Shown here piece by piece: positions 57,542 through 61,517 of a DNA stretch of 64,000 nucleotides. Where the stretch lies: NCBI GenBank assembly GCA_963751955.1, contig CAVVWM010000003.1, forward strand, positions 322,644 through 386,643, read 5' to 3'. The first letter of the stretch is position 1. Each line of letters opens with the position of its first letter. The position numbers were made by a program, and so were the translations under genes. The stretch comes from an uncultured Acidimicrobiales bacterium (GTDB lineage: Bacteria; Actinomycetota; Acidimicrobiia; Acidimicrobiales; SZUA-35). Below the pieces are notes generated by a model that ran no database searches, was not told the origin of the DNA, and was given only the letters and a program-made list of their open reading frames with translations.

Positions 57542-58978
57542 GTGGATCTACCGTCGACGACTACGACCTTTGACGAGATGGTGGCCGACGGGACCACGGT
57601 TCGCTCCCCGTACCGTCAATACTGTGAGTGGATCGACGGTGAAGACCCGACCCGACTACTCACCAAGACCGCCGAAGCAGAAACAATCTTCCGACGGACC
57701 GGTATCACATTCAACGTTTACGGAGATGAAGCGGCCGACGAACGACTAATCCCGTTCGACATCGTGCCGAGAATCATCTCAGGGCTCGAGTGGCACCGAC
57801 TGTCGCCGCGGTATCGAGCAGCGAGTCCGAGCCATCAACGCTTTTCTCTACGACATCTATCATCGTCAAGAAATCCTCAAAGCCGGAAGAATCCCGGAGT
57901 CGCTGATCGCCAAGAACAACGCCTATCTCCCGCAGATGCAGGGAGTAGATCCTCCGGGCCGGGTCTACACCCACATCGTCGGAATCGACCTGGTCCGGAC
58001 CGACGAAAACGAGTTCTACGTGCTGGAGGACAACGCTCGGACACCTTCGGGGGTGTCGTATATGCTGGAGAACCGCGAGACCATGCTGCACATGTTCCCC
58101 GAGTTGTTCTCGACGATCTCGGTTCAGCGGGTCAACACCTATCCACTCCACTTGCGTCGCTCGCTAGCCGCCTGCGCCCGAGAGAATCAGACCATCGGCC
58201 GACCGTGGCGGTCCTCACTCCCGGTGTGTACAACTCAGCCTATTTCGAGCATTCGTTCCTCGCTGACGAGATGGGGGCGGCTTTGGTTGAGGGGAACGAC
58301 CTGCGGGTGGTAGATGGCCGACTGGCCATGCGTACGACACAGGATTATCAACCCATCGACGTTCTCTATCGTCGGGTAGACGACGACTTCCTGGACCCGC
58401 TGAATTTCAATCCAACCTCGCAGTTGGGCGTTCCCGGCGTGTTTGATATCTATCGAGCCGGCAACCTGACAATTGCGAACGCACCCGGTACCGGAATCGC
58501 CGATGACAAGGCGGTCTATTCCTATATGCCCGAAATCGTGGAGTTCTACACCGGCGAACAACCCATCCTGAAGAACGTGCCCACGTGGCGGTGTGCCGAG
58601 CCAGACTCGTTGGCTTACGTGTTGGATCACCTCGACGAGCTGGTCGTCAAGGAAGTTCACGGTTCGGGCGGCTACGGCATGCTCGTGGGGCCCGCCGCCA
58701 GCAAAGACGAATGCAAACGGTTCGCAGCCAAGCTTCGATCAGCCCCGGCCAACTACATTGCACAACCGACCCTTGCGCTCTCGTCGGTGCCGATACTGAC
58801 CGAGAGCGGTCTTGCGCCCCGGCACGTGGATCTCCGCCCCTTCGTCCTGGTTTCTCCCGACTCGATTCACATCACCCCTGGCGGTCTCACTCGGGTTGCG
58901 CTGGAAGAAGGGTCGCTCGTGGTCAACTCCAGCCAGGGCGGCGGAACCAAAGACACGTGGGTGCTGGAGGACTTCTGA
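57542..58978 (+). CDS. Circularly permuted ATP-grasp protein (COG2308 / DUF404-DUF407 type), central 128 codons out of frame
   Basis: The flanks read RSPYRQYCEWI...GITFNVYGDE...IPFDIVPRII and TVAVLTPGVYNSAYFEHSFLADEMG...VDVLYRRVDDDFLDP...IANAPGTGIADDKAVY...KEVHGSGGYGML. The conserved middle is readable only in the +1 frame between about 57805 and about 58195: GIEQRVRAINAFLYDIYHRQEILKAGRIP...[37 protein letters not shown]. Confidence 0.85.
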   Translation: MDLPSTTTTFDEMVADGTTVRSPYRQYCEWIDGEDPTRLLTKTAEAETIFRRTGITFNVYGDEAADERLIPFDIVPRIISGLEWHRLSPRYRAASPSHQRFSLRHLSSSRNPQSRKNPGVADRQEQRLSPADAGSRSSGPGLHPHRRNRPGPDRRKRVLRAGGQRSDTFGGVVYAGEPRDHAAHVPRVVLDDLGSAGQHLSTPLASLASRLRPRESDHRPTVAVLTPGVYNSAYFEHSFLADEMGAALVEGNDLRVVDGRLAMRTTQDYQPIDVLYRRVDDDFLDPLNFNPTSQLGVPGVFDIYRAGNLTIANAPGTGIADDKAVYSYMPEIVEFYTGEQPILKNVPTWRCAEPDSLAYVLDHLDELVVKEVHGSGGYGMLVGPAASKDECKRFAAKLRSAPANYIAQPTLALSSVPILTESGLAPRHVDLRPFVLVSPDSIHITPGGLTRVALEEGSLVVNSSQGGGTKDTWVLEDF

Positions 58979-59922
58979 TGATGCTCGGAACCACTGCTGG
59001 TGGTCTCTTCTGGATGTTCCGGTACCTGGAACGGTGCGAGAACACAGCTCGATTGGTCGAGGCTGGCCTCCGGATTGCGCTCACCAAGTCCAGCGAGAGT
59101 GCCGGAGAGTGGGAATCGGTTGTGCTCACCACCGGTGCCTCGGATCTGTTTGAACAACATCACGATCGATACGAACGCCACGCCGTCATCGACTTCTTGT
59201 TGCGCGACCCGGAGAATCCATCGAGCGTGCTCTCACTCGTCGAAGCCGCCAGGAACAACGCCCGCGGTGTCCGTACTGCACTGACTCGTGAAGTCTGGGA
59301 AGCGACCAACGATTGCTGGATGGTGCTTCGTGCCACGCTCGCCGATCCCGTTCCGGATCGCGACCTGCCCGAAGTCCTTGGCCTCATCCGGCGGGAGAGT
59401 GCTCTGGTTCGTGGAGCACTGCACGGGACTGTGATGCGCAACGACATCTACGATTTCGCCCAGCTCGGCATGTTCGTTGAGCGAGCCGACAACACCGCAC
59501 GGATCTTGGACGTGAAGTACTACATTCTACTTCCCTCGGTCTCTGCGGTTGGATCGAGGCTCGACACCCTTCAGTGGGAGACGATTCTTCGGTCGGTCTC
59601 TGCTCAACGCGCCTTCCGTTTCGAGTTTCCCGGTGCCATTAGCCCGCGGGATGTTGCTGCGTTCCTGGTATTGGATCCACGGATGCCCCGATCTCTCGCC
59701 TACTGCTTTTTCAAAATCCGCGACAATCTCGACTATCTCGGCACCCAGTACAACTTTCGACATCCGAGTCACGACGTTGCTGAAAAACTCATCGATTCGA
59801 TCAGCGGTCGCGAGATCGAGCACATCTTCGACAGTGGTTTGCACGAGTTCCTTCGTGCGGCCATCGGAGAGATCGCGTCGCTAGCGGGTCAAATTGAGAT
59901 CGACTACCGGTTCAGCAGGTGA
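58978..59922 (+). CDS. Alpha-E domain protein (COG2307 / DUF403)
   Basis: The start overlaps the upstream stop (TGATG). GLFWMFRYLERCENTARLVE...WESVVL...LVRGALHGTVMRNDIYDFAQLGMFVERADNTARILDVKY is typical of alpha-E. Confidence 0.85.
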   Translation: MMLGTTAGGLFWMFRYLERCENTARLVEAGLRIALTKSSESAGEWESVVLTTGASDLFEQHHDRYERHAVIDFLLRDPENPSSVLSLVEAARNNARGVRTALTREVWEATNDCWMVLRATLADPVPDRDLPEVLGLIRRESALVRGALHGTVMRNDIYDFAQLGMFVERADNTARILDVKYYILLPSVSAVGSRLDTLQWETILRSVSAQRAFRFEFPGAISPRDVAAFLVLDPRMPRSLAYCFFKIRDNLDYLGTQYNFRHPSHDVAEKLIDSISGREIEHIFDSGLHEFLRAAIGEIASLAGQIEIDYRFSR

Positions 59923-59929
59923 ATCCAGC

Positions 59930-60727
59930 ATGCTCTTGAACATCAGCCATGAAACGGTCTACCGGTACGATCAACCGGTTCCCTTCGGGCTCCAACAAGT
60001 GAGGAAGACTCCCCGGACCAACCACCTGCAACGAGTCATCAACTGGGAAACCCGGGTGGAGGGCGGCACCATTCAGGCCACATTCGCCGACCAATACCGA
60101 AACACCGTTCAGCTGGTAAGTCTGGCCGAAGGCCAAGACACCTTCCGCCTTACCAGCTCGGGGTCGGTAGACACCATTGACACCGGTGGCGTATTCGGAG
60201 CGGCGTCGGAAATCGTGCCGCTTTGGCTATTCCTGCGGTCGACACCGCTGACCGAGCCCGGACCTTTGGTCACAAGTCTGCTGGACAGCAAAGTCGAGCA
60301 TCTGAACGACTTGAACAACCTGCACGATCTTTGTTCAAGAATCCTAGATGCGGTTGAGTACGAGACTGGGTCGTCGACGACAGTGTCCACCGCCGAGGAC
60401 GCGCTTAGGACTGGAAGCGGCGTGTGCCAAGACCACGCCCACGTGCTGATCAGCGTCGCCCGATTGGCTGGATGGCCTGCTCGGTATGTCAGCGGCTACT
60501 TGATGATGAACGATCGGATCGATCAAGAAGCAACCCACGCATGGGCTGAAGTCCATGTGACCGGACTCGGCTGGGTCGGGTTCGACGTCTCCAACGGTAT
60601 TTCGCCCGACGAGCGGTACGTTCGAATCGCGGTCGGCCTCGACTATGCCGAGGTAGCCCCGGTCTCGGGGATCAGGTTCGGCGCCGCCGAAGAACAGCTG
60701 AATGTCTCAATTCAGGTCCAACAGTAA
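59930..60727 (+). CDS. Transglutaminase-like cysteine peptidase-fold protein (Bact_transglu_N plus core)
   Basis: MLLNISHETVYRYDQPV N-terminal domain. Catalytic triad context GSGVCQDHAHVLISVARLAGWPARYVSGY, THAWAEV and GFDVSNG. Confidence 0.85.
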   Translation: MLLNISHETVYRYDQPVPFGLQQVRKTPRTNHLQRVINWETRVEGGTIQATFADQYRNTVQLVSLAEGQDTFRLTSSGSVDTIDTGGVFGAASEIVPLWLFLRSTPLTEPGPLVTSLLDSKVEHLNDLNNLHDLCSRILDAVEYETGSSTTVSTAEDALRTGSGVCQDHAHVLISVARLAGWPARYVSGYLMMNDRIDQEATHAWAEVHVTGLGWVGFDVSNGISPDERYVRIAVGLDYAEVAPVSGIRFGAAEEQLNVSIQVQQ

Positions 60728-60767
60728 CGACCGATAGATTCATGGTGATGATCACGGGAACGATGCG

Positions 60768-61517
60768 ATGACCTACTGCGTTGGACTTCGGACCGAGCAG
60801 GGTTTGGTGTTCATGTCCGACACGCGTACCAACTCGGGTGTAGACAACGTTTCGGTCTACCGAAAGATGCCAACGTGGGCGAACGAGGGAGAACGGGTGA
60901 TCACTCTCCTCTCGGCCGGCAACCTCGCCACGACTCAGTCGGTCGTCAGCCTGCTCGACGAGCGATCCAAAGTGCCCAAGGACCGCAGCCCCTCGATCCT
61001 CGAGGCCCCAACGATGTTTCAGGTAGCCCGACTGGTCGGGCAGACGGTCCGAGAAGTGATCGACATCCAAGGGGAGACCGGCGAGACAGATGACAGCAAG
61101 TTCAACAGCACGCTGATCCTCGGTGGGCAGATCAGGGGAATGACACCCCGTCTGTTTCTGGTCTACCCGGAGGGCAACTTCATCGAGGCAACCGATGACA
61201 CGCCCTTCATGCAAATCGGTGAGACGAAGTACGGCCGACCGATTCTGATTCGGGCCTATCAGGAGTCGATGAGCTTTGATGCAGCGGTCAAGTTACTGCT
61301 GGTCTCCTTCGACTCCACGATGCGGGCAAACCTCTCGGTGGGATTTCCGATCGACCTTCAGGTCTATGAAGCCGACAGCTTCCGTCGCCAGCCACGCATA
61401 CGTATTGAAGAGGACGACCCTTACTTCCGGTCGATTTCGGCCGGATGGAGTGGGGCGCTGCGGCGAGCATTCGACTCACTGCCCGATTTCGATCTCAGCG
61501 GACGAAGCCCGGCGTAA
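60768..61517 (+). CDS. Anbu-type proteasome beta-subunit homologue (COG3484 peptidase)
   Basis: Begins MTYCVGL with no propeptide, so Thr follows the initiator Met directly. Asp18 (MSDTRT) and Lys33 (VYRKM) sit where the proteasome Thr1/Asp17/Lys33 triad would be. 249 aa. Last gene of the cassette. Confidence 0.8.
   Translation: MTYCVGLRTEQGLVFMSDTRTNSGVDNVSVYRKMPTWANEGERVITLLSAGNLATTQSVVSLLDERSKVPKDRSPSILEAPTMFQVARLVGQTVREVIDIQGETGETDDSKFNSTLILGGQIRGMTPRLFLVYPEGNFIEATDDTPFMQIGETKYGRPILIRAYQESMSFDAAVKLLLVSFDSTMRANLSVGFPIDLQVYEADSFRRQPRIRIEEDDPYFRSISAGWSGALRRAFDSLPDFDLSGRSPA

Follow-up and report, generated by a model that had tools for sequence, protein, structure and literature searches.

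A 64,000-nucleotide (nt) stretch of contig CAVVWM010000003.1, from an uncultured marine bacterium of the order Acidimicrobiales, was analysed over its whole length and is referred to here as the window. On its forward strand it carries four tightly packed genes (Table 1) predicted to encode a circularly permuted (CP) ATP-grasp ligase, an Alpha-E protein, a transglutaminase-like protein as well as Anbu, a proteasome-fold hydrolase. The original prediction, made from the sequence alone, had described this cassette as a complete ligase-protease system lying beside a canonical Pup-proteasome. Here we report that the gene families, their order and the identity of the peptidase hold and that the ATP-grasp gene is frame-broken as sequenced. 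With fair confidence, we read the locus as an ordinary Anbu-1 operon, probably intact in the organism and likely exchanged with marine Alphaproteobacteria, whose products would form a ligation-then-hydrolysis module.

Descriptions of the Anbu operon and of the order of its genes date from 2008-2009 (PMC3235984; Iyer et al. 2009, cited after PMC5666114 and PMC6376114), and structures of Anbu followed in 2017-2018 (Fuchs 2017; Piasecka 2018). No function was known for Anbu as of 2021 (PMC8665760), and a substrate or role for the operon is likewise unreported (PMC6376114); the earlier remark that neither had been demonstrated still agrees with the literature.

Gene families and layout of the cassette

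The compact, co-directional arrangement proposed for the four open reading frames (ORFs) was borne out by the ORF listing and by direct reading of the sequence. Successive genes overlap by 1 nt and then stand 7 nt and 40 nt apart; the ATG of the Alpha-E gene shares one nucleotide with the TGA of the ATP-grasp gene. Profile searches returned the expected families throughout. The first ORF matches Pfam CP_ATPgrasp_2 and CP_ATPgrasp_1 (PF14403/PF04174), the second gives a full-length match to the Alpha-E model (PF04168, COG2307) directly beside the CP-ATP-grasp gene, and the third contains both domains of the transglutaminase-like family (PF08379 and PF01841, COG1305), each above its cut-off. NCBIfam models gave no match for the ATP-grasp, Alpha-E or transglutaminase-like proteins. 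In translation the transglutaminase-like protein keeps the Cys, His and Asp contexts that had been attributed to it (GVCQDHAH, THAWAEV and GFDVSNG, respectively), and the succession ATP-grasp, Alpha-E, transglutaminase, Anbu is the operon context of Anbu-1.

No AAA+ gene is present within the cassette, nor does an hslU-like gene neighbour it, and no small ORF able to encode a tag was seen in the cassette and its surroundings. A scan of positions 55900-62300 for promoters and terminators found sites no more numerous than in shuffled sequence, and thus no signal of an operon boundary. An Rfam scan of the whole window returned one tRNA only; near the cassette it showed neither a riboswitch nor a leader.

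Table 1. Predicted genes and sequence features of the window, cassette first (positions count from the first nucleotide of the window; aa, amino acids)
Feature	Position	Strand	Remarks
CP-ATP-grasp ligase gene (COG2308 type)	57542-58978	+	478-aa ORF; frame-broken as sequenced
Frame-offset segment of ATP-grasp gene	57806-58186	+	True frame one base off the annotated ORF; indels at 57805 and ~58177-58187
Alpha-E gene (COG2307 type)	58978-59922	+	314 aa; Pfam Alpha-E 6.7e-87, profile 1-293/294
Transglutaminase-like gene	59930-60727	+	265 aa; Pfam Bact_transglu_N 1.4e-16 and Transglut_core 5.2e-21
Anbu (Anbu-1 type) proteasome-fold Thr1 Ntn-hydrolase gene	60768-61517	+	249 aa; phmmer against PDB
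Beta-lactamase-fold serine hydrolase gene	56142-57479	+	Pfam Beta-lactamase 1.8e-55; SxxK is SMTK
Convergent gene	61476-62178	-	One-base insertion (+1) at 61688 that all three nearest relatives lack; no Pfam family
arc/mpa, proteasome ATPase	4616-6421	-	TIGR03689 pup_AAA 761 bits (cut-off 504.75); C-terminus ...GQYL
dop (Pup_ligase family)	2784-4305	-	Frame-broken near 4050-4083
pup	2545-2745	-	Pfam Pup 5.3e-21; ends GGQ
prcB, 20S beta subunit	1754-2548	-	Pfam Proteasome 5.5e-36; intact
prcA, 20S alpha subunit	1084-1757	-	Frame-broken near 1270
His_Phos_1 gene	8750-9447		Break near 9190; positions 1-127 of the profile in one frame and 128-193 in another
DUF2079 gene	15837-17325		Break near 16090
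FAD/NAD-binding-like gene	48263-49614	+	Three breaks near 48537, 48817 and 49090; N-terminal GxGxxG dinucleotide-binding motif

The Anbu peptidase

Among PDB chains, phmmer matched the last protein of the cassette to Anbu structures (5LOY, 9.9e-90; 5NYJ, 2.9e-83; 5NYF, 1.1e-82; 5NYW, 3.8e-71; 5LOX, 5.1e-63), with alignments that span residues 1-243 of 249 and so include the C-terminal helix extension. The best match, 5LOY, is the Anbu-1 consensus protein, and no HslV, BPH or 20S chain appeared among the PDB matches at E<=0.01. The Pfam Proteasome match was weak, and the NCBIfam matches comprised archaeal proteasome models only, far under their cut-offs. As first described, the protein begins MTYCVG, has no propeptide, and carries D18 and K33 (numbered from Met); M1, T2, D18 and K33 proved invariant across an alignment of 27 relatives. 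The S1 pocket of Pa-Anbu is amphiphilic and formed by T20, F30, T48, L52 and S55 (PMC5666114). The corresponding positions read off our translation are T20, Y30, S48, L52 and T55, all conservative replacements where they differ and none of them Arg, in agreement with an Anbu-1 pocket and unlike the basic pocket of Anbu-2. Judged from its sequence, the 249-aa protein is an Anbu-1 and unambiguously Anbu rather than HslV or a 20S beta subunit.

Frame breaks in the ATP-grasp gene and across the window

The cassette is not complete as sequenced, contrary to its first description, since the ATP-grasp gene is doubly frameshifted. Alignment of the DNA with the three nearest relatives, the Acidimicrobiales metagenome-assembled genomes (MAGs) L001, L002 and L003, revealed that one base is inserted (+1) at 57805 and one deleted (-1) at about 58177-58187. 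Neither change is found in any of the three; the deletion is probably a CCCC run cut to CCC. Codons 89 to about 212-215, a stretch of some 124-127 codons that includes the core ATP-grasp motifs, are consequently out of frame. Midway through the 478-aa translation the sequence turns into low-complexity nonsense, and three-frame translation places the conserved stretch with RGIEQRVRAINAFLYDIYH and FYVLEDN in the neighbouring frame. This alternative-frame piece on its own matches positions 57-140 of the CP_ATPgrasp profile, and a self-trained codon model independently changes frame at 57808 and 58200. As sequenced, the protein scores 351.6 bits against CP_ATPgrasp_2 and covers profile positions 91-374 only; once base 57805 is removed and one C restored near 58177, the score rises to 544.7 bits, with positions 1-374 of 374 covered, and the repaired protein, again of 478 aa, is 91-92% identical to those of L001 and L002 over its full length.

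The ORF remains open because the two indels compensate each other, and the double frameshift leaves it unbroken because the offset frame is free of stop codons, as it is in relatives: the same alternative frame is open for more than 500 nt in the unshifted genes of L002 (6975-7502) and L003 (6959-7477). Stop-free runs of this kind occur by chance in 3.6% of comparable out-of-frame 127-codon segments of the contig. The open out-of-frame stretch was considered as a possible sign of selection and rejected in view of this chance rate and of the open frames in L002 and L003; it is most likely a by-product of base composition.

The ATP-grasp gene is not alone in this respect. At least ten single-base frame breaks affect eight otherwise well conserved genes across the 64 kb, about one per 6 kb, and neither in-frame stops nor larger deletions were seen in the frame-broken genes. 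We take the breaks, most likely, for residual errors of the assembly.

Conservation of the four-gene unit

For comparison we assembled 80 related loci, found with query-derived patterns, which together with the window make a set of 81. The same compact ATP-grasp, Alpha-E, transglutaminase, Anbu order recurs in 51 of them. The assignment of a canonical Anbu-operon order to the window stands. Among loci with enough upstream DNA, the complete upstream triad is missing in only seven, and six have Anbu without any triad gene upstream. Clustering of the flanking ORFs of the 51 loci revealed within-genus synteny only, with no fifth partner or tag gene conserved across taxa. As far as gene neighbourhoods can tell, the cassette is a self-contained four-gene unit.

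Anbu genes that have no triad upstream occur in some loci of Sphingomonas, Rhizorhabdus and Rudaea type (L021, L024, L034, L035, L063 and L064). In locus L058 no transglutaminase gene lies between the Alpha-E and Anbu genes, and in L020 the sole transglutaminase match is weak and lies 3' of Anbu. All of these loci vary the canonical layout.

The serine hydrolase gene immediately upstream of the cassette had been put forward as one that may be co-transcribed. It does end 62 nt 5' of the ATP-grasp gene on the same strand, but it is no conserved partner: the hydrolase occupies this position only in the window and in L001-L003, and is absent there from the distant Acidimicrobiia L004 and L005 and from every Proteobacteria locus. 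Its top NCBIfam match is AcmB-like and far under the cut-off of that model. By its distribution, the hydrolase is a lineage-specific neighbour, predicted to stand outside the system. In L004, a distant member of the Acidimicrobiales, another ORF of 306 aa (5379-6299, +) takes its place, 6 nt 5' of the ATP-grasp gene.

Phylogeny and horizontal transfer

The window is syntenic with Acidimicrobiales MAGs over about 13 kb at 72-85% DNA identity, and its closest relatives L001-L003 share 72-83% DNA identity over the cassette region. Outside the class, the nearest homologues belong to marine Alphaproteobacteria (Hyphomonas, Henriciella, Hyphobacterium, Aestuariivita and 'Ca. Rhodobacter oscarellae'), whose ATP-grasp proteins are 73-75% and whose Anbu proteins are 60-65% identical to those of the window. 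The Anbu proteins of the window and Hyphomonas are 63% identical, and those of Hyphomonas and Brevundimonas 41%. In a neighbour-joining tree of the ATP-grasp proteins, the Acidimicrobiia and the Hyphomonadaceae/Rhodobacterales form a clade with 100% bootstrap support that excludes Caulobacteraceae, Sphingomonadaceae and Defluviicoccus; within it the Acidimicrobiia are monophyletic (86%). The Anbu neighbour-joining tree has the same topology.

This joint clade conflicts with the species tree and suggests transfer of the whole cassette between phyla. Given the method, we treat horizontal exchange with marine Alphaproteobacteria as a lead that the protein trees suggest. Whether the cassette of the Acidimicrobiia is non-ancestral, a four-gene module taken from marine Alphaproteobacteria or given to them that now runs beside a Pup-proteasome, seems to us an evenly balanced proposition. 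If it is correct, the case for actinobacterial Anbu as a vertically inherited, direct ancestor of the 20S proteasome would be weakened, and the cassette would be marked as a portable and self-sufficient unit; that it moves between phyla as one piece is already hinted at here.

Proposed mechanism

We infer the following scheme, all of its steps, from the protein families and the literature. ATP-grasp enzymes make amide bonds by way of an acyl-phosphate intermediate. The ATP-grasp enzyme of the cassette, with its Alpha-E partner, would accordingly use ATP to activate a carboxylate as the acyl-phosphate and couple it to a peptide or protein amine, yielding an amide or isopeptide adduct. The transglutaminase-fold Cys-His-Asp enzyme and the Thr1 hydrolase Anbu would then act on amide bonds of the adduct, so as to trim, remove or degrade it. 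Such a module would work without an AAA+ unfoldase and separately from Pup, ARC and the 20S proteasome, probably under nitrogen limitation by analogy with Pseudomonas putida.

Several published observations bear on parts of this scheme. The ATP-grasp protein of the Yersinia operon frees phosphate from ATP (PMC6376114). The proteasome-type active site is present in full in Anbu, Pa-Anbu binds inhibitors of the proteasome, and Anbu assembles into an open dodecameric split ring that has no AAA+ partner (PMC5666114). Nitrogen limitation strongly induces the operon in P. putida (PMC3235984, note added in proof; PMC5666114).

Alternative explanations

A number of points weigh against reading the locus as an intact, exchanged operon for ligation and hydrolysis. 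For the indels, the explanation as errors falls short of proof: no second, independent assembly of this strain turned up, the best metagenome match being 84% identical, and a scan of genomes gave nothing near-identical, L002 coming closest with 82.5% DNA identity over the cassette. Two compensating indels in one gene are, moreover, a somewhat unlucky coincidence. The trees that point to exchange are neighbour-joining trees, and their loci, collected with query-derived patterns, form a biased sample. As to function, peptidase activity has been found for no Anbu, stable complexes among the operon proteins were not detected (PMC6376114), and a role in peptide synthesis is held to be less likely by Fuchs et al. 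(PMC5666114).

Were the frame breaks real, they would reflect recent gene inactivation: the ATP-grasp gene, dop and prcA would be fresh pseudogenes, and the Anbu cassette and the Pup-proteasome would both be decaying. The ATP-grasp indels are indeed in the sequence and unique to the window lineage, and eight genes are affected within 64 kb, one of them (48263-49614) with three frame changes. The pattern of substitutions speaks against decay. With L001 as outgroup, those on the window lineage number 13, 2 and 57 at the first, second and third true-frame codon positions of the whole ATP-grasp gene and 3, 0 and 18 inside the shifted segment, where they cause one amino-acid change, and their rate shows no excess over L002. 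Since the substitutions follow the true frame, purifying selection must have acted on that frame essentially until now, and it is for this reason that we read the frame breaks as assembly errors. The lack of in-frame stops and larger deletions likewise argues against inactivation, as does the coding signal of the codon model, which runs on seamlessly in the shifted frames. Within a shared neighbourhood of about 9 kb, furthermore, the window has three frame-breaking indels and L002 (MFD03551.bin.1.105) at least three different ones, at about 4498, 5974 and 11206, in an MFS transporter gene, the Beta-lactamase-fold gene and the gene 3' of Anbu, whereas L001 and L003 have none. We take L002 to be a long-read MAG of the Microflora Danica project, and contig names suggest that L001 and L003 are short-read assemblies. 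We therefore regard pseudogene formation as improbable; the breaks are probably residual indel errors of a long-read-type assembly, and the cassette of the organism itself is probably intact. The lesson for data quality is that claims of 'complete', 'truncated' or 'pseudogene' made from this contig need checks at the level of reads, and the ligase gene would have to be corrected before expression.

The function assigned to an intact cassette has rivals of its own. In the view of Fuchs et al., Anbu would be a stand-alone general protease, independent of any unfoldase and serving for example in nitrogen starvation, that is merely co-regulated with the triad and is linked to it by no tag or ligated product. 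The triad is widespread without Anbu, six of our loci with enough upstream DNA have an orphan Anbu, and physical interaction among the operon proteins was not detected (PMC6376114); the ring-like Anbu, with its many identical sites and its binding of proteasome inhibitors (PMC5666114), also fits this view. It sits less well with four genes that are tightly packed in one order across phyla, in 51 of the 81 loci, and that appear to travel jointly in horizontal transfer; nor does Anbu show peptidase activity alone (PMC6376114). We consider a stand-alone protease unlikely, though a contender to be taken seriously. According to the reading of Iyer et al., as relayed by later papers, the cassette might instead make and recycle a small peptide or amide metabolite, the ATP-grasp/Alpha-E pair ligating amino acids and the hydrolase-fold pair processing the product rather than proteins. 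ATP-grasp enzymes such as glutathione synthetase do ligate small molecules, some Ntn-hydrolases cut non-peptide amides (PMC6376114), and the want of a candidate tag ORF in or beside the cassette would be in keeping with such a role. No metabolite of this kind is known, however, and the dodecameric split ring and proteasome-like S1 pocket point to polypeptide substrates (PMC5666114); we judge a metabolite pathway rather improbable.

The Pup-proteasome cluster and comparison with known systems

A Pup-proteasome had been placed about 50 kb from the cassette. The cluster arc-dop-pup-prcB-prcA indeed lies 51-56 kb away on the same contig, and a second Pup_ligase-like gene begins at the left edge of the window (positions 1-111). 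The genes comprise ARC/Mpa, a Pup ending in GGQ, a Dop/PafA-family protein, PrcB and PrcA, with the reservation that dop and prcA are each split by one frame break. In dop, positions 1-60 of the Pup_ligase profile are matched in one frame (4015-4305) and positions 69-440 in another (2787-4079); in prcA, the Proteasome profile match halts at position 144 of 189 and the C-terminal part lies in another frame.

Two modules that pair a ligase with a proteasome-fold peptidase thus occur on one contig, as was claimed, but the novelty of the combination is weak. A 2008 survey of 238 genomes found Anbu, HslV and BPH never together with the 20S proteasome, and the same paper mentions a Leptospirillum metagenome with HslV, 20S and Anbu (PMC3235984). 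Fuchs et al. later listed actinobacteria among the main hosts of Anbu-1 and stated that a single organism frequently has more than one homologue of the proteasome (PMC5666114). At the level of phyla the co-occurrence had largely been described. Our literature search found no papers that treat Anbu and pupylation together; explicit discussion of this pair may be lacking, while the co-occurrence itself is unsurprising. The window adds Anbu and a full Pup-proteasome gene set on a single contig of the Acidimicrobiales, a combination unseen in the 2008 survey and implicit in the 2017 work. It gives no new handle on substrate or tag, and the host is uncultured.

The cassette most resembles the Anbu operon of Proteobacteria and Cyanobacteria (Pseudomonas aeruginosa and P. 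putida, Yersinia bercovieri, Hyphomicrobium; Valas & Bourne 2008; Fuchs 2017; Piasecka 2018), with which it shares the four families, their order and tight spacing, the Thr1, Asp17 and Lys32 residues, and the absence of a propeptide and of an AAA+ partner in the cassette. It differs in its Acidimicrobiales host with a Pup-proteasome, in the hydrolase gene 62 nt upstream that is confined to the sublineage, and in the frame-broken ATP-grasp gene. Actinobacteria also carry ATP-grasp/Alpha-E/transglutaminase triads that lack a peptidase, of which we take Mycobacterium tuberculosis Rv2411c-Rv2409c to be an example. These triads have the same three families in the same order, in a host with a Pup-proteasome. 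The window, in contrast, has Anbu attached; in our trees of the related loci its cassette groups with alphaproteobacterial cassettes. A 2026 preprint that names Rv2411c was set aside; Rv2411c was tested there as a candidate, the enzyme found was Rv1722, and nothing is said on the function of the family.

Like the Pup-proteasome (PafA/Dop, Pup, ARC/Mpa and PrcAB), the cassette combines a Thr1 proteasome-fold hydrolase and a carboxylate-amine ligase that depends on ATP. The ligase of the Pup system is glutamine-synthetase-like, whereas that of the Anbu cassette is a circularly permuted ATP-grasp enzyme; the former system also uses Pup as its tag and has an AAA+ unfoldase and a closed barrel of 28 alpha and beta subunits, whereas for the latter neither a tag nor an unfoldase is known, and its Anbu forms a split ring that is open. 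HslVU and BPH are, like Anbu, homo-oligomeric proteasome-beta-like Thr1 hydrolases of bacteria, but the window protein matches Anbu chains (1e-63 to 1e-90) and not those of HslV, BPH or 20S.

Other features of the window

No other gene in the window is as heavily broken as the FAD/NAD-binding-like gene, whose stitched repair matched Pyr_redox below threshold only. The convergent gene downstream of the cassette overlaps the 3' end of the Anbu gene by about 42 nt and is conserved, in unbroken form, in L001 (250 aa) and L003 (223 aa). Finally, the codon model scored as coding a long minus-strand ORF (17322-18410) within which a tRNA-Pro(GGG) is located at 18114-18188 (+); the actual gene at this position is probably shorter than the ORF.

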